From an uncultured Candidatus Saccharibacteria bacterium (GTDB taxonomy: Bacteria; Patescibacteriota; Saccharimonadia; Saccharimonadales; CAZJQT01), in assembly GCA_964636215.1 (NCBI GenBank), contig CAZWRJ010000001.1, forward strand, positions 39,928 to 103,927: a DNA stretch of 64,000 bases, read 5' to 3'. Positions within the stretch are counted from its first letter, which is position 1. Each line of letters begins with the position of its first letter. The notes beneath the pieces were generated by a model. It was not told the DNA's origin and did no database searches. It saw only the letters and a program-made list of their open reading frames with translations. The position numbers and the translations under genes were made by a program. Shown here piece after piece: positions 12,538 to 50,355 of this stretch.

Positions 12538-14313
12538 CTATCCCGCAATTTCATAAGCCTTAAGTTTGGCACGAGTTTGTTCGCCAGCTTTAACTTTCTG
12601 CAACTTTAATAACTGGTCATAGATGCCGCCACTTTTAGCCAGATCGTCTGGACTACCGACTTCATCTATTTGACCACCTTTGAGGGTAATAATCTGATCA
12701 ACGTGCTGAATGGTGCTGAGACGGTGGGCGATAATGATAGTTGTCCGGCCGCGCATCAGGTGTCTTAGAGCTTCCTGAACCATAGCTTCAGAGCGGCTAT
12801 CCAAACTACTGGTGGCTTCGTCCAAAATTAAAATCGGTGCGTTTTTGAGTAAGGCGCGAGCGATGGCGATACGTTGTTTTTGACCACCGCTTAGCTTTAG
12901 GCCCCTCTCGCCAATTTCAGTATCGTAACCCTTGTCAAACTTGTCGATAAACTCATCAGCATTAGCCGCTTTGGCTGCAGCGATGATCGCTTGGTCGCTG
13001 GCTTTAGGATTGGCATAGCCGATGTTCTCGCGGATAGTACCAGAAAACAGAGCTGGATCCTGGAAGACAATACCGATATTTTCTCTCAGTGAACTCTGAG
13101 TTACTGAGTTAATGTCTTGGTCATCTATCAAGATATGACCAGTGGTTGGTTCATAAAGTCGAAGTAGCAAATTTGTCAGCGTTGTTTTACCCTCACCACT
13201 TTCACCAACTAGAGCAATCTTGGTATCTGGTCGAACAGTCAGGTTGATTTCCTTGAGAACTGGTTGTTTGGCGTCGTAGCCGAAATTAACTTGGTCAAAA
13301 ATAATTTCCCCTTTAGGTACCTCTAGTTTTTGGCTGCCTGGACGATCACTGATCTGCGGCTCAATTGCCATGATCTCAAAGTAGTCACGACTATCGGCTA
13401 TAGCCTTTTGGGTATTATCGACTAGAAAACTAATGGTAAAGATGGGAATTCTAATCTGCTGGGCATAGAGAATAAGGGCTACCGCTTGGCCTGGCGTCAG
13501 TAAACCCTTTGCAGCCGTAACAAATATATAAAGATAAACCATTAGAAAGACAACATTCAGGAACAACCGCCGGCGCACATCGCGTTCGTGCCAGTAATGA
13601 GACTGGGGCTTGTTAATATTGACCATTTTGGTCAGGTGTTTATCAAAAAAGCTTAGTTCCCTTTTTTCTTGAATGAAGCTTTTGACCACTTTGATTTGGC
13701 CAATAGCTTCGGTAAAGCGGCCGCTAGCAATATCGATGTTGGTGTTTTTTTCGGCTTGGTATTTTTGCCACTTGTCGCTGGTCCGGATAGTTAGATAAAT
13801 ATATACCGGATACAGCGAGAAAAGCATTAAAGCTACCGGCCAGCTGTAAAAAGCTACAATCACCAAGGCAAAAACAGTGCTAAAAATAAACTGCAGGAAA
13901 TTGTTACTCAGCATGTTCATGAAATTGGTGATTTGATTGATGGAACGGTTTAGCCGGTTGATAATTTTGCCGCTTAGTTCAGTGTCAAAATATCGCTGCG
14001 GCAGGGTTAGCAGGTGTTCGTAGTAGCGATTGCTAAGCAAGCGTTGTAATTTGGCAGCCATTTGATCACCTAGGTAGCCGTTGATGTTATTTAAAAAGTT
14101 GCCGGCCACATCCATAACGAAAATCAGTATCGCCAGCACCACCACGTAGGAAATACTGGCCGAGGTTCCTTTATGAATTTCATCTATCGCCCAACCACTA
14201 AACAGGGGTAACAGGAGCATAGTAATACTGCTTAAAATGGTCAGAATACTGATCAAGATATAGTAAGACCACAGTTGGCGGGCAGAGGCGAGAATTTTAT
14301 AAATATGTTTCAC
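12538..14313 (-). CDS. ABC transporter, fused permease/ATPase (MsbA-like exporter)
   Basis: Six-TM domain plus Walker A GESGEGKTT, signature LSGGQKQR and Walker B ILILDEATS. Start placed at GTG 14313 (VKHIYKIL...). The track start at 14448 reads into the GC-rich noncoding island and gives a Pro/Arg-rich, non-conserved-looking extension. Confidence 0.85.
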   Translation of the reverse strand: MKHIYKILASARQLWSYYILISILTILSSITMLLLPLFSGWAIDEIHKGTSASISYVVVLAILIFVMDVAGNFLNNINGYLGDQMAAKLQRLLSNRYYEHLLTLPQRYFDTELSGKIINRLNRSINQITNFMNMLSNNFLQFIFSTVFALVIVAFYSWPVALMLFSLYPVYIYLTIRTSDKWQKYQAEKNTNIDIASGRFTEAIGQIKVVKSFIQEKRELSFFDKHLTKMVNINKPQSHYWHERDVRRRLFLNVVFLMVYLYIFVTAAKGLLTPGQAVALILYAQQIRIPIFTISFLVDNTQKAIADSRDYFEIMAIEPQISDRPGSQKLEVPKGEIIFDQVNFGYDAKQPVLKEINLTVRPDTKIALVGESGEGKTTLTNLLLRLYEPTTGHILIDDQDINSVTQSSLRENIGIVFQDPALFSGTIRENIGYANPKASDQAIIAAAKAANADEFIDKFDKGYDTEIGERGLKLSGGQKQRIAIARALLKNAPILILDEATSSLDSRSEAMVQEALRHLMRGRTTIIIAHRLSTIQHVDQIITLKGGQIDEVGSPDDLAKSGGIYDQLLKLQKVKAGEQTRAKLKAYEIAG

Positions 14314-14391
14314 AGGCTTCAAATACTCTAACAGATTAGATGGGTTACGTCCTGCACAAACTATAACTAGCGTTACGGTTTCTGGAAGACG

Positions 14392-14549
14392 GACAGGTGT
14401 GATTAAGGGGAGGGAGCGAGGGGTAATTGGCGATGGCCAATGACACACTCAGGCTCCCTTGCCTCTTTGTTACGCGATGGCGTTCCGGACCCTGTGGCCC
14501 CCCGATTGCAGCCAGCACCCTGGAGGTGCTGGTGGGCGGATGCGTTTGG
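14392..14549. ncRNA. unassigned GC-rich structured module (5' part of the structured island)
   Basis: No credible ORF. Perfect helices at 14412-17/14453-58, with a G.U-containing extension at 14405-11/14459-67. Hairpins at 14426-31/14436-41 and 14512-19/14525-32. The 5' strand of the 14-bp helix 14482-95/14566-79 lies here. 14392-14403 is the left arm of a 12-bp inverted repeat with 14985-96. Strand unresolved. Confidence 0.35.
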
Positions 14550-14925
14550 AGGGATGGAGGACCAGACAGGGTCCGGAACAATTGGAGCTCAAGCAAATGA
14601 ATGCGAGCTCAGCGGTGGTAGTGAAGGTAAGCCCGAATTTCAACGGGTAGTGGGCAGACTCTGCGTGCTGACAGCACACACAAGTCCATACTGGGCAGGC
14701 GGACGGGAGTCCTAGCCGGCTTTTTTGTTACCTTCACTTCTTGGTTAGCTCTGGTGAGCTAACGCGAACATGGAGAGCGACCAATCCTTACAAGACAACC
14801 GCCGAGGAGGCGCTGTGTCCCGAAGAAGCAACCGACTCTCCATGGAACGTTTGCAGCACAGACCCCCACGAACCTGGCTTAAGCGACACGGCGTCGCACA
14901 AACGTTCAGAAATTCACCATCTATA
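14550..14925 (+). ncRNA. rnpB: candidate RNase P RNA (class-A-like motifs, atypical architecture)
   Basis: The + strand carries four motifs in the order they have in E. coli M1 RNA (recalled from memory): GACCAGACAG (14560-69), AAGUCC..AUA..GGGCAGG (14682-99), AACCGCCGA (14797-805) and CCACGAACCUGGCUUA (14866-81). A P4-like pairing is possible between AAG(U)CCA 14682-88 and UGGCUU 14875-80. A P1-like pairing is possible between 14552-61 and 14913-22. Boundaries and identity are tentative, and P12-P18 could not be placed. Confidence 0.4.
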
Positions 14926-15041
14926 GAGACAGTAGCACCAACCTAGTTGGTTAGGCTCGTGTTACTGTCTCTTGCCAAATAAATATCACACCTGTCAAAG
15001 TACGCCCATAAGGGAGCAAAACTCGACCTCAGAGCGAGATC

Positions 15042-15070
15042 ATTCTATACCTTTTAGCTACTGATTTCAA
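15042..15070 (-). promoter_or_regulatory. sigma70-like promoter candidate pointing into the structured island
   Basis: Minus strand TTGAAA (15070-15065), 17 nt, TAGAAT (15047-15042), just downstream of the pheT stop. It conflicts with the + strand assignment of the RNase P-like motifs, so it may be fortuitous in AT-rich DNA. Confidence 0.25.
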
Positions 15071-15091: not shown

Positions 15092-17623
15092 TTATAATCG
15101 TTCGGCACCAAGGGCCTGCTTTGCTAATTTCGCTACTTTATCTAATAAATTATTGACACCCTCATCGGTAAGCGTGGTTTCGAACGAGGCAATATGGAGT
15201 CTTAGAGTAATGTTTTTAGCGGAGGCATTCTTCTGATAAATGTCTAGGGGAGTTAGGGTCATTTGGGTGCTCTCTGGCTTTAGTTTATTAAGATTCTCAA
15301 GCACAAATTTGTAAACCTCGGCGTAAGTTAAGCGATTTGACACCTTGAGTGATAGGTCCTGTTCAACTTTAGGGAAGCGCGGCAATTCTAAGTAAGCGCT
15401 TTCACTTGCTCCCTGGCCTAGGAGCAAGGGTCCAACTTCAAAAGCCGAAGTGTAGGCCGGCAATTTTAAATTGTGCCGGACAGAGGCTTTTAGTTCACCT
15501 ATTACTCCCCAAACTGTTCCCTTGTGGTCTCGCATCAGAGCACTTCTACCTGGTTCGTAAGGCATAGTTAATTGCTTTATCCAGGAGTTTTTAGATAATG
15601 CGCCAGTATCAAACGGCACGAGCGCTACTAAGGTTTGGACCTTAAAATGCTTCAGTAGATGATCCAGATAGATTTTGGCTTGATAGTAGGCAGCGCCTTG
15701 CAGATTTTGGGCAGCCTTGTCGCCAGCTACAAACACAAAACCTACAGCGTTTTGCTCCCTGGGGATGGCTGGTTCATGCTTATCAAATTCTCCTTTCATG
15801 TGCGTTTTACCCAGTTCAAACAAAGCAAATTGATCGTACCCAGCCTTAACATTAAGGTGGACTTTGTCCAGTAAGCTGGGTGTTAAGCTCAGCCGGTAGT
15901 ACTGCAGGTCAGGGCTCGAGGCATTAGACAACTTAAAGGCCTTTGTTTTATCCTGTCCAACTCTATCGAGTAGATTTCCATGTACGAAACTATAAGTAAG
16001 GACTTCGTTGGCACCCGCTCGACTGAGTATTTCACGAATCGACGACTTCAAAACAAGTAGCTGGTTTTTAGAAACTGGCGATAAGTCACGTTTTGGTAAA
16101 ACCAGTGGCAATTGATCATAACCATAAAGTCGACCGACTTCTTCAACTACGTCTTCAGCAATGGCAATATCGGTTCTCCAAAAAGGCGCACTAACTTTGA
16201 GTTCCTGGCGATTATCAGTCCGCTCAACCTTGAATTCCACGTTTTCTAGTATTTTTTGAATATCATCTGGGCTAAGCTCTAAACCTAGTCTTTGGCTAAT
16301 AAAGTCAGCACTGACCCTAACCATTGTCGGAGTCTTAATTTGGCCCTTCAGATCTGTAAGCTTAGTTGGCCGTCCTCCAACTTTCGTCATAGCATTAGTA
16401 ATATCGGCTAGAACTCGGTCGTTTTGAAATGGTGATTGGCCTTTGTTAAAACGAGTTACGGCATCAGTAAATAGACCGTGATGCATGCTGGTTCGTCTGA
16501 TGGTGTACATATCAAAGGTGGCACATTCGATGATTATATTCTTGGTGGTGTCGTCCACTTCGGAGTCAGCGCCGCCCATAACTCCGGCTAATCCCACCAC
16601 TTGTTTGTCTGTAGCAATAATAATATCTTCAGCCTCAAGATTAATAGTTTTGCCTCCCAGTAGGGTAAGCTTTTCGCCTTTCTTGGCCAATCTAGGCATT
16701 AGCGTTGGTGTACTGGTGCTCAAATTCTTGATCTTGTCGTAGTCAAAGGCATGAGTCGGTTGACCAGTTAGGTGCATATAGTAATTAGACCAGTCAACAA
16801 TATTATTGATGGGACGAATGCCGACTCGCGTTAATTGGGCAGCCAGCCAAATTGGGCTAGGGCCCACCTCTATGTCTTCGACAATCTGGGTCATGAACCT
16901 TGGTACCAAACTAGGCACAGGATTAGTGACTTTTAGGTTGAGTTTGGTACTACTCGATTTGTTATTTCTTGACTTTAAATACCAATCAGGGCTTTTAAAA
17001 GCTAGTCCTTGAATACCGGCCAGTTCCCTAGCAACCCCCAAGATGCCGAAACAATCTGGACGATGGGTGAACATCTTGTTCTCTATATCAATAACAGTGT
17101 CGTTAAGCCCATACAAATTCTTAAAGGGGGCTCCGGGCTTAGCTAACTGCGCGCCAACTTCAGCAATATCGATTTCTAGGATTCCGCTGTGATCATCACT
17201 AATACCAAGCTCATGAGCACTAGCTAACATGCCATTACTGACAATGCCTCGAATTTCCCTAGCCTCCAGTACTAGCGGATCCTTGCTAGGCGTTGATGGC
17301 ACAGTGGTGCCTGGTGGCAACCAGGCAACTAGTAATCCAGTTTTAACATTCGGTGCCCCACAAACTACTTCTATATAGCCATTCTTGTCTCGTTTAACAC
17401 CTTTGGTGGCTTTATTGTCGTCAATAAGGCAGACGTGAAGTTTGTCGGCATTTGGGTGTTTTTTACAGGAAACAACTTTAGCAACCACAATTCCGTCGAA
17501 TCTAGGGCTCCATTCCTCAATTTCTTCAATGGCTCCCAGTTGGGCGCCAATTTTTGACAATAATTCATCAGTGGGCAGTTTAAGCTCGGTGTATTGACTA
17601 ATCCAGTTGAGGCTAATTTTCAT
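15092..17623 (-). CDS. pheT: phenylalanine--tRNA ligase beta subunit
   Basis: 843 aa. N-terminal tRNA-binding domain, B3/4, B5 and FDX-ACB-like C-terminus. 4-nt overlap with pheS. Confidence 0.93.
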   Translation of the reverse strand: MKISLNWISQYTELKLPTDELLSKIGAQLGAIEEIEEWSPRFDGIVVAKVVSCKKHPNADKLHVCLIDDNKATKGVKRDKNGYIEVVCGAPNVKTGLLVAWLPPGTTVPSTPSKDPLVLEAREIRGIVSNGMLASAHELGISDDHSGILEIDIAEVGAQLAKPGAPFKNLYGLNDTVIDIENKMFTHRPDCFGILGVARELAGIQGLAFKSPDWYLKSRNNKSSSTKLNLKVTNPVPSLVPRFMTQIVEDIEVGPSPIWLAAQLTRVGIRPINNIVDWSNYYMHLTGQPTHAFDYDKIKNLSTSTPTLMPRLAKKGEKLTLLGGKTINLEAEDIIIATDKQVVGLAGVMGGADSEVDDTTKNIIIECATFDMYTIRRTSMHHGLFTDAVTRFNKGQSPFQNDRVLADITNAMTKVGGRPTKLTDLKGQIKTPTMVRVSADFISQRLGLELSPDDIQKILENVEFKVERTDNRQELKVSAPFWRTDIAIAEDVVEEVGRLYGYDQLPLVLPKRDLSPVSKNQLLVLKSSIREILSRAGANEVLTYSFVHGNLLDRVGQDKTKAFKLSNASSPDLQYYRLSLTPSLLDKVHLNVKAGYDQFALFELGKTHMKGEFDKHEPAIPREQNAVGFVFVAGDKAAQNLQGAAYYQAKIYLDHLLKHFKVQTLVALVPFDTGALSKNSWIKQLTMPYEPGRSALMRDHKGTVWGVIGELKASVRHNLKLPAYTSAFEVGPLLLGQGASESAYLELPRFPKVEQDLSLKVSNRLTYAEVYKFVLENLNKLKPESTQMTLTPLDIYQKNASAKNITLRLHIASFETTLTDEGVNNLLDKVAKLAKQALGAERL

Positions 17624-48670: not shown

Positions 48671-49369
48671 CTAAGGTTTGTATTTCTTGAGGGCGACCTC
48701 GGCGGCCGATACTTGACCGGCTTGTTTACTAGGGCCAACCCCTTTGCCTTTTAGCACTCCGTTTACGTAAACACCAACGGCAAATGTTTTGTCGTGATCT
48801 GGGCCATTTTCACTAATGACTTTATAAACTGGCGTGAAGCCATCTTTACTTTGAATTAGCTCCTGTAAACGGCTTTTGGGATCCATCCACGAACCGTTTT
48901 CCAAGATGTCTTTGAAAGTAACAAGTAAACTACTAGTAATAAAAGTTTTGGTAGCCTCAAACCCTTGATCTAGATAAAGTGCCCCGACAACTGCTTCATA
49001 AGAGTTAGCCAAAATTTGTTCACGGGCCCGGTCAGTACCCCGTTTTTCACCGCGACTTAACCGCAGCAACGGCTCAAAACCTAGGCGGCCGGCAGCAGCA
49101 CCAATGCTTTCAGTTCTCACCAGCGAACTTCGCCAGTTGGTAAGCACTCCTTCCGGTTCATCAAACTGCTCAAATAAATATTCGGTAGAAATCAGCTCGA
49201 GCACAGCATCGCCCAAAAATTCTAGTCGTTCGTTGTGTTCATGAACAGTTTTACGATGCTCATTAACATATGAACGATGAGTGAAAGCCGTTACAAGAAG
49301 TCCAATGTCATTAAAATCAACTCCTAGAACTGCGCTGGCAAATTGTTTGTAAGGTGTAGTGTCTTGCAT
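48671..49369 (-). CDS. rnc: ribonuclease III
   Basis: 232 aa. NERLEFLGDAVL signature and a C-terminal dsRBD. Confidence 0.95.
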   Translation of the reverse strand: MQDTTPYKQFASAVLGVDFNDIGLLVTAFTHRSYVNEHRKTVHEHNERLEFLGDAVLELISTEYLFEQFDEPEGVLTNWRSSLVRTESIGAAAGRLGFEPLLRLSRGEKRGTDRAREQILANSYEAVVGALYLDQGFEATKTFITSSLLVTFKDILENGSWMDPKSRLQELIQSKDGFTPVYKVISENGPDHDKTFAVGVYVNGVLKGKGVGPSKQAGQVSAAEVALKKYKP

Positions 49370-49881: not shown

Positions 49882-50355
49882 TTATTTCTTAGCCTTGGGC
49901 TTTGACTTCTTGGGGGCGGCTTTACTTGGAGTTCCCAGTTGTTTTAAAAGGGTGCCTAGTACACCGTTAATAAACTTACTAGAGTTATCTCCACCAAAAG
50001 CCTTGGCCAGCTCAACGGCTTCATTAATGACCACCTTAGGCGGCACATCAACCTTCGATATAAGCTCAAAGGCACCAATCCGTAGAATGATACGGTCCAT
50101 TCTAGCGATTTGATTAATCGGCCACTCTGGAGCGATTGGCTGCAAGCGATCATCTAGTTCCTGCTGATCTTTACTAACACCGTGCACCAATTCTTCGATG
50201 AACTGTCGATCATCAACCGTATCTCGATATCGATCGATATTACGCTTCAGTACCTTATTCAAACTGAAAGTACTATCACCACAATCGCGCCTAAACTCTT
50301 GTTCATACAAGGTCTGGAGAGCGATGATGCGACCAAGGTGACGATTCGATGCCAT
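49882..50355 (-). CDS. nusB: transcription antitermination factor NusB
   Basis: 157 aa. R..A.Q.LY N-terminus, NEAVELAK and FINGVL motifs, with a Lys-rich tail. Confidence 0.9.

Follow-up and report, generated by a model that had tools for sequence, protein, structure and literature searches.

Which RNA, if any, is encoded within positions 14550 to 14925 of the DNA presented here, and on which strand? The stretch lies in a window of 64,000 nucleotides (the whole of the DNA analyzed) from an uncultured member of the Saccharimonadales, the source genome of which (G000; other genomes are numbered likewise) comprises 37 contigs and 740,556 bp and is 97.7% complete. A first-pass annotation had noticed four plus-strand strings resembling motifs of M1, the RNase P RNA of Escherichia coli, and had offered two readings, namely, a strongly remodelled RNase P RNA or another RNA in which the motifs occur by coincidence. 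Our analysis agrees with the latter as far as the coincidence goes but places the other RNA on the minus strand and extends it beyond the stretch. We consider it reasonably probable that positions 14550 to 14925 are the interior of a separate long structured RNA gene of about 690 nucleotides (nt), spanning approximately 15036 to 14348 on the minus strand, and that this gene is one copy of a family made in the manner of an rRNA operon.

The proposed minus-strand RNA and its family

A repeat search at this locus identified a perfect 12-bp inverted repeat, GACAGGTGTGAT (14392 to 14403) and ATCACACCTGTC (14985 to 14996), the arms of which are predicted to close the RNA into an end-to-end helix. 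Searches of 60 relatives and of 80 metagenome pheT loci with the surrounding intergenic gap (BLAST and nhmmer) returned a single match of 40 nt, by BLAST in G020. In that genome, the identical pair of 12-mers flanks an island rich in G+C, about 780 nt long, that likewise lies directly after pheT. Across 401 genomes of the order, only G000, G020, and G084 have inverted pairs of these 12-mers at a spacing of 600 to 800 nt, and the next gene in all three is the orthologous ABC exporter; lone 12-mer matches, seen in 34 other genomes as often as chance predicts, lack partners and were discarded. The 401-genome counts, of 12-mers here and of exporter orthologues below, include the unpublished genomes G262, G307, and G340, on which none of our other claims depends. 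Since the gap after pheT is shorter than 100 nt in most relatives, the RNA appears to be tied to the ABC exporter gene and not to pheT. Among 72 regions upstream of the exporter (1.5 kb each), about 20 contain the RNA unit, and these represent 10 families.

What these copies share is a frame of elements in constant order. On the 5′ side, a −10 box (often TGnTATAAT) is followed by a hairpin whose lower stem and upper stem (GAG...YUC) are separated by a 2-nt bulge and then by the block G-Y-A-C-U-U-U-R-A-C-A. A 12-nt arm overlapping the last four bases of that block leads, via a U-rich stretch, into an interior of 454 to 760 nt, and the unit ends with a pyrimidine-rich stretch (often CGCUCC), the complementary 12-nt arm, and a two-tier hairpin. 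In G084, G263, G202, G158, G033, and G310, a U-run after this closing hairpin makes it an intrinsic terminator. The frame is complete in the window, from promoter, leader hairpin, and boxA-like block through the end-to-end helix and closing hairpin to the ABC exporter (Table 1).

The arms of the closing helix covary. In an alignment of the 20 full elements, which carry 17 distinct arm pairs, the 12 pairs of the helix were compared with 500 shuffles of the partners. Standard pairs filled 97.9% of the cells, compared with 81.7 ± 1.4% after shuffling, both sides had changed in 41 cells, compared with 9.7 ± 2.6, and the covariation score was 0.503, compared with 0.170 (0/500 shuffles in each case). 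Sliding the partner by 1 to 3 columns reduced pairing to 30 to 45%. Eight of the 12 pairs are compensated and three are invariant; the few non-Watson-Crick cells include G-U pairs that are present on the exporter strand only. The arms are paired in the unconstrained minimum-energy fold of 15 of the 20 members and in that of the copy studied here. Both hairpins of the frame show a similar signature. For the closing hairpin, RNAalifold predicts 17 pairs from the 20 copies, every one of them with a compensatory change in at least one genome. The leader hairpin follows a common design in most of the 20 members, and its lower stem covaries (UUUGG/CCAAA, UUCGG/CCGAA, UUUAG/CUAAA, and UUGC/GCAA); because its loop lengths vary, MAFFT combined with RNAalifold gave no consensus for the leader.

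Folding and orientation point to the minus strand as well. Both strands of the region fold far below their shuffles, the minus strand better (−276 versus −251 kcal/mol), with more pairs and more G-U pairs than the plus strand, and a continuous stem of about 31 bp (14844 to 14769) forms only on the minus strand. When the copy is folded from 15036 to 14340, it reaches −318.5 kcal/mol (z = −13.2), and the fold includes the leader and closing hairpins as well as the closing helix. The RNA gene is codirectional with both flanking genes, pheT (15092 to 17623) and the ABC exporter, and the small open reading frames (ORFs) and tRNA look-alikes of its relatives, described below, all lie on the exporter strand. 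A promoter scan found a candidate sigma-70-type promoter, TTGAAA-17 nt-TAGAAT, at 15070 to 15042 on the minus strand (10 of 12 matches), and relatives have (TGn)TATAAT-type boxes at the matching relative place; we infer a transcription start near 15036.

The block that abuts the upstream arm resembles boxA, for which the consensus GYTCTTTAANA, with C4 and T6 critical, has been published (PMC5725501). This consensus is gammaproteobacterial, and the scores of the Saccharimonadales copies must be read against it. The block in the window matches 9 of 11 positions, keeps C4 and T6, and shares its final 4 nt with the opening 4 nt of the 5′ arm. Over the 20 copies, the blocks average 8.8/11 at a fixed position (at least 9 in 13 copies, and 11/11 in one), compared with a background of one such site per 858 nt. 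Furthermore, the 16S-23S spacer of G033 contains GTACTTTAAAA, and its RNA copy contains GTACTTTAACA, which are identical at 10 of 11 positions, including the unusual A3. These similarities are suggestive of a boxA. Another boxA-like site, at C15:12440, was dismissed as a chance match inside an aminoacyl-tRNA synthetase ORF.

In searches against Rfam, no copy matched any family apart from the tRNA look-alikes, and no paper describing the RNA was found in the literature. The 3′ frame was captured in a covariance model (R1), which gives 45.3 bits at 14333 to 14405 on the minus strand, although this copy belonged to its training alignment; across 151 genomes of the class, it matched only G000 (at this locus), G033, and G049, all Saccharimonadales. 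To judge from these searches, the RNA family is uncatalogued and, among the sampled genomes, confined to the Saccharimonadales.

Table 1. Positions of the RNA unit, the neighboring exporter gene, and the M1-like strings in the window
Feature	Positions	Strand	Basis
Candidate −35 box TTGAAA, 21 nt past the pheT stop codon	15065..15070	−	Promoter scan
Candidate −10 box TAGAAT	15042..15047	−	Promoter scan; aligned −10 column in relatives
Leader hairpin AGG-UC-GAG-UUUUG-CUC-CCU (lower stem, 2-nt bulge, upper stem GAG/CUC)	15011..15029	−	Per-sequence folds
boxA-like block GUACUUUGACA	14993..15003	−	Consensus match, 9/11
Closing helix, 5′ arm GACAGGUGUGAU	14985..14996	−	Perfect 12-bp inverted repeat; covariation in 20 genomes
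G+C-rich, ORF-free, helix-dense interior (581 nt), enclosing 14550 to 14925	14404..14984	−	Composition, folding
Closing helix, 3′ arm AUCACACCUGUC	14392..14403	−	Inverted repeat; covariation
Two-tier hairpin after the 3′ arm	14348..14391	−	RNAalifold on 20 copies; model R1
ABC exporter gene (MsbA-like half-transporter, 591 aa)	12538..14313	−	Pfam ABC_membrane and ABC_tran
M1-like motif GACCAGACAG	14560..14569	+	Sequence check
M1-like motif AAGTCC..ATA..GGGCAGG	14682..14699	+	Sequence check
M1-like motif AACCGCCGA	14797..14805	+	Sequence check
M1-like motif CCACGAACCTGGCTTA	14866..14881	+	Sequence check
Stretch of the first-pass annotation, M1-like motifs judged coincidental	14550..14925	+	No model match, shuffle tests, rnpB elsewhere

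Interior, optional cargo, and surroundings

Inside the closing helix, sequences can be aligned only within genera, no protein is conserved across families, and G+C is above that of the surroundings. Consensus folds within genera reach −188, −163, −148, and −97.5 kcal/mol, versus −73, −99, −64, and −29 kcal/mol for column shuffles, and pairs within genera contain about twice as many compensatory pairs as column-shuffled controls. Cofolding within genera, combined with rapid sequence change, indicates that the interior is constrained as a structure. Since coarse minimum-energy shapes disagree between families, we make no claim of a shared interior architecture.

Some copies carry additional modules. 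Six of the 20 islands encode, on the forward strand, a putative zinc-ribbon protein of 41 to 52 amino acids with CxxC...CxxC motifs and a strong Shine-Dalgarno sequence, always 48 to 80 nt from the 3′ arm and never in a reverse frame. The mini-ORFs of G020 and G084 differ chiefly at synonymous sites; matches of the mini-proteins to DnaJ_CXXCXGXG and Anti-TRAP stay below the curated cutoffs of Pfam and NCBIfam. These two Cys-rich mini-ORFs (L130:2058-2207 and L129:1944-2099, both on the plus strand) start with TTG and CTG, four bases past a perfect (T)AGGAGGTGAT, and thus combine an unusually strong ribosome-binding site with weak start codons. Six islands match the tRNA model (49 to 68 bits) about 100 nt past the 5′ arm. 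These non-decoding look-alikes have intact acceptor, D, and T arms but aberrant anticodon loops: sister genomes differ in the anticodon (AUU versus CUU), the loop can be 6 or 8 nt long, and an insert of 28 nt occurs. As both kinds of cargo are missing from most copies, neither defines the family. The copy in the window has no conserved ORF, no CxxC...CxxC frame, and no tRNA match (E ≤ 10), and neither its island nor the rest of G000 encodes a homologue of the zinc-ribbon peptide of G020 and G084.

The helices that the first-pass annotation had singled out as the strongest do exist, as parts of the RNA on the opposite strand: two are perfect inverted repeats of 14 bp (14482 to 14495 with 14566 to 14579) and 11 bp (14620 to 14630 with 14728 to 14738), and in place of the third our fold uses a 10-bp stem (14845 to 14854 with 14898 to 14907). 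The three-way element at 14907 to 14845 was considered as a decayed tRNA look-alike and abandoned, as no model supported it. The first helix inside the 5′ arm is a near-perfect 48-nt hairpin (14925 to 14972) with 21-nt arms that are 86% complementary; it drew a spurious match to the mir-4524 model on both strands. Close to the predicted start, an alternative hairpin (15042 to 15024) overlaps the leader hairpin.

The RNA occupies most of a 778-nt gap between pheT and the exporter, a length that follows from placing the exporter start at GTG 14313, as set by its orthologues. The protein begins MKHIYKIL there, compared with MNHIYKIL and MNAIWKIL in orthologues, and the start of the longest ORF at 14448 is not the true one. 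No ORF in the gap has a Pfam match, and its G+C content (57 to 58%, with 56 to 58% for the interior of the RNA, versus 43 to 45% in the flanks) is the highest among the long ORF-free gaps of the genome. The exporter, for which the family search gave no equivalog-level name, has an orthologue in single copy in 251 of the 401 genomes of the order. In G000, the closing hairpin lacks a U-run, a terminator scan found nothing, and no promoter was seen in the 35 nt between the RNA and the exporter start; therefore, the folded RNA and the exporter are probably cotranscribed. In G020 and G084, a near-palindrome, ACTTAACGTGTTAAGCTTTA, lies between the RNA terminator and the ABC start (L129:2249-2271 and L130:2459-2481), with similar sequences in G076, G082, and G014. 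It may be an operator of the exporter and is not found in the copy of the window.

At the gathering threshold, Rfam 15 recognizes three tRNAs in the window and nothing else, and between 14000 and 15400 the mir-4524 hit is the sole match even at E ≤ 10. At that same permissive threshold, the models of OLE, GOLLD, ROOL, HEARO, raiA, T-box, riboswitches, group I and II introns, transfer-messenger RNA (tmRNA), signal recognition particle (SRP) RNA, and 6S RNA do not match here. Elsewhere in G000, tmRNA is encoded on a different contig, and the small-SRP and 6S models match nowhere. The other G+C-rich structured gaps of the genome have no sequence in common with the RNA. Three ORF-free gaps that Rfam leaves unclassified (C14:1705-2308, C30:2560-3000, and C3:2791-3199) have G+C fractions of 0.51 to 0.52 and fold z scores of −5 to −13. 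Another G+C-rich, ORF-free, and strongly folding gap, C3:10290-11102, contains a Hammerhead_3 match at G000:C3:10897-10951 on the plus strand (L092:898-952; 41.7 bits against a gathering threshold of 48.5; E = 2.8e-6), and a weak T-box leader match lies at G000:C36:354-517 on the minus strand (L102; 36.3 bits against 93; E = 5e-5).

RNase P and other explanations

The four M1-like motifs do lie on the plus strand where they had been reported, and all four are also present in E. coli rnpB (L217). The statement that CCA is encoded by each of the three tRNA genes in the window is likewise correct. Nevertheless, the RNase P families (RF00010, with a gathering threshold of 100 bits, and RF00011) are unmatched between 14000 and 15400, both at the gathering threshold and at E ≤ 10, and a canonical RNaseP_bact_a gene resides on another contig (G000:C12:2492-2841), where it scores 240.2 bits and covers the whole model. 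Together, these two results, which the first-pass annotation had named in advance as decisive against it, refute the RNase P reading. The strings do follow the canonical order, and a colinear k-mer chain against M1 scores 68, compared with 48.9 ± 8.1 for shuffles, of which 7 of 300 reach it; this nominal P value of about 0.02 belongs to a stretch selected by its motifs from approximately 340 strand-windows. Against the rnpB gene of G000 itself, the chain scores 44, and shuffles score 43.4 (153 of 300 reach the score). The resemblance to M1 is thus a selected coincidence, no more than expected by chance. Furthermore, every orientation clue favors the opposite strand, and homologous loci keep the frame and not the M1-like strings, so that we consider a plus-strand RNase P RNA, however strongly remodelled, practically negligible as an explanation. 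For annotation in general, short matches to RNase P motifs can appear by chance in other G+C-rich RNAs, even on the wrong strand.

More serious is the objection that the unit might be a long cis-acting leader of the exporter mRNA, an oversized riboswitch or attenuator without a role of its own. The RNA is always directly upstream of, and codirectional with, the same exporter gene, and in G000 neither a U-run on the closing hairpin nor a promoter before the ABC start separates the two. In contrast, in G020, G084, G222, G263, and G202, the exporter has a −10 box of its own after a full terminator; known ligand-sensing leaders do not resemble an RNA of 500 to 800 nt with a fast-changing interior; riboswitch and T-box models do not match; and the tRNA look-alike or translated mini-ORF cargo suggests an independent product. 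We therefore regard a simple leader as unlikely. Still less probable, in our estimate, is a decaying structured mRNA, in which the zinc-ribbon protein is the main product, the helix stabilizes or silences the message, and the copy of G000 is an ORF-less remnant. The presence of the mini-ORF in 6 of 20 islands at a constant distance from the 3′ arm, its strong Shine-Dalgarno sequence, the mainly synonymous differences between G020 and G084, and the weak matches to DnaJ_CXXCXGXG and Anti-TRAP would all fit such an origin. Yet promoter, helix, hairpins, high G+C content, and strong folding all persist in the 14 ORF-less copies, the one in the window among them, and the alignment of G222 with G263 shifts frame and still cofolds, which speaks for noncoding conservation. 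Nor would a dead remnant be expected to retain a perfect 12-bp helix and a z score of −13.

Perfect terminal inverted repeats around an island that differs in composition from its flanks also recall a mobile, or once-mobile, MITE-like DNA element, in which repeats read by one transposase would co-change just as helix arms do. We judge this very improbable. Each genome holds a single copy (G000, G020, and G084 each contain the 12-mer once in forward and once in reverse orientation), and in all 10 families its site is constant, next to a core gene that is inherited vertically; no target-site duplication was seen beside the arms, and no transposase is encoded nearby. In addition, the G-U pairs occur on the exporter strand only, and conservation extends past the repeats to the promoter, leader hairpin, and terminator.

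Several observations weigh against an independent RNA made like rRNA, the reading we prefer. Any one protein that binds both DNA ends could keep inverted repeats matched, and the family was seen in only about one-quarter of the ABC-upstream regions examined. The promoter, start, and ends are predictions. The closest pheT among relatives is just 60% identical, and one further contig with the locus (L106) is 100% identical and therefore offers no strain-level variants; because no close relative is available, the interior structure of this copy is argued from folding energy only. With regard to boxA, position 3 is A instead of U in most copies, and the 16S leaders of G202, G020, G084, and G057 have no close copy of the motif. 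The rRNA operon of G000, all of whose rRNA genes seem to be missing from the assembly, is unavailable for comparison. Twelve base pairs are short for an RNase III substrate helix, and an RNA-binding domain of Rho was not found in G000 (97.7% complete), so that protection from Rho cannot be the reason for a boxA in this genome. In G057, whose 16S leader was among those compared, the 16S match spans 1,687 nt (L224; G057:C2:214899-216585) versus 1,533 positions in the model, which suggests an insertion in the gene.

A model for RNA production and its parallels in known systems

Rho is not needed for every role of boxA. At rRNA, the Nus/SuhB complex mainly tethers BoxA to the elongating polymerase for correct folding of the nascent RNA (PMC4807359), a role that requires no Rho and whose geometry matches the one seen here. 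Considering these data, we propose that the unit is built like a small rRNA operon that yields a nonribosomal structured RNA; no rRNA model matches inside the closing helix, and the enclosed RNA is therefore not ribosomal. In this model, NusB/NusE would bind the boxA-like block abutting the upstream arm and stay tethered to the polymerase while the long and very stable RNA is made. Much as has been suggested for the leader-trailer stem of 16S rRNA, tethering would help the downstream arm to find its upstream partner, and RNase III might then cut the closed helix, releasing the RNA. G000 encodes both RNase III (rnc; window positions 48923 to 49306, minus strand) and NusB (nusB; 49945 to 50331, minus strand). 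These genes for the two factors that the model calls for are thus close neighbors, separated by a few hundred bases and read in one direction.

If this is correct, a broader hypothesis can be put forward, tentatively: the Saccharimonadales would have a new class of large RNAs that use the production line of rRNA, with a fast-evolving scaffold of 500 to 800 nt, swappable modules, and an activity tied to the ABC exporter. Within this hypothesis, the tRNA look-alike among the modules would draw in RNase P along with other enzymes that act on tRNAs. Saccharibacteria live attached to other bacteria and are still poorly understood as a group. That some 700 costly noncoding bases are kept in genomes of 0.6 to 1.2 Mb argues for a real function. 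To our knowledge, few bacterial RNAs of more than 500 nt have a conserved structure but no assigned function, and OLE, GOLLD, and ROOL each proved to do something unexpected. Were the rRNA-like frame real, the Nus/boxA folding machinery would be a general device for long structured RNAs other than rRNA.

How does the RNA compare with systems that are already known? With type A RNase P RNA, of which M1 is an example, it has in common the short plus-strand strings, the length, and the G+C-rich, helix-dense character, but it lies on the wrong strand, matches no RNase P model, lacks a P4 or P15 architecture, and occurs in a genome that already has rnpB. The hok-type and icaR-type mRNAs similarly have a long-range helix between transcript ends, and six relatives of our RNA also encode a small protein. 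Unlike those mRNAs, however, the unit has no hydrophobic toxin ORF and no antisense partner was seen, most copies are ORF-less, and the helix covers no ribosome-binding site in the copy of the window.

The leader and trailer of rRNA operons provide a closer parallel. These operons have a hairpin, a boxA, a GU-rich boxC, and a 16S leader-trailer helix, and they are served by a NusB/NusE/NusA/NusG/SuhB complex and by RNase III. The order of elements agrees: in the present unit, too, a promoter and a hairpin precede a block close to the boxA consensus, and the helix strand that abuts this block (with GUGUG) has its partner hundreds of bases further on; what the helix encloses is again a long RNA with extensive structure and no translation, and nusB and rnc are present in the genome. 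The differences are that the RNA enclosed here (450 to 760 nt) is nonribosomal and turns over rapidly in sequence, that the helix is only 12 bp long, that position 3 of the boxA-like block is mostly A, and that the unit precedes an ABC exporter; NusB/NusE binding and RNase III cutting are, for this unit, predictions. The use of boxA outside rRNA has precedents. The leaders of CRISPR arrays, the transcripts of which are long and untranslated, use boxA. A boxA also stands at the start of a non-rRNA transcript in the suhB leader (PMC5725501). In these cases, as in ours, a boxA-like sequence opens a non-rRNA transcript, but theirs serves anti-Rho protection or translational repression and is not combined with a leader-trailer helix.

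Finally, the large noncoding RNAs OLE, GOLLD, and ROOL (PMC12286853) resemble the family in being longer than 500 nt, densely structured by prediction, mostly noncoding, and preceded by a promoter of their own, and OLE shares with it a constant gene neighbor (oapA for OLE, the ABC exporter here). No sequence or model match connects them to our RNA, and whereas those RNAs have a core that is conserved, conservation between families is limited here to the frame and reaches the interior only within genera, and the modules that the interior carries are optional.

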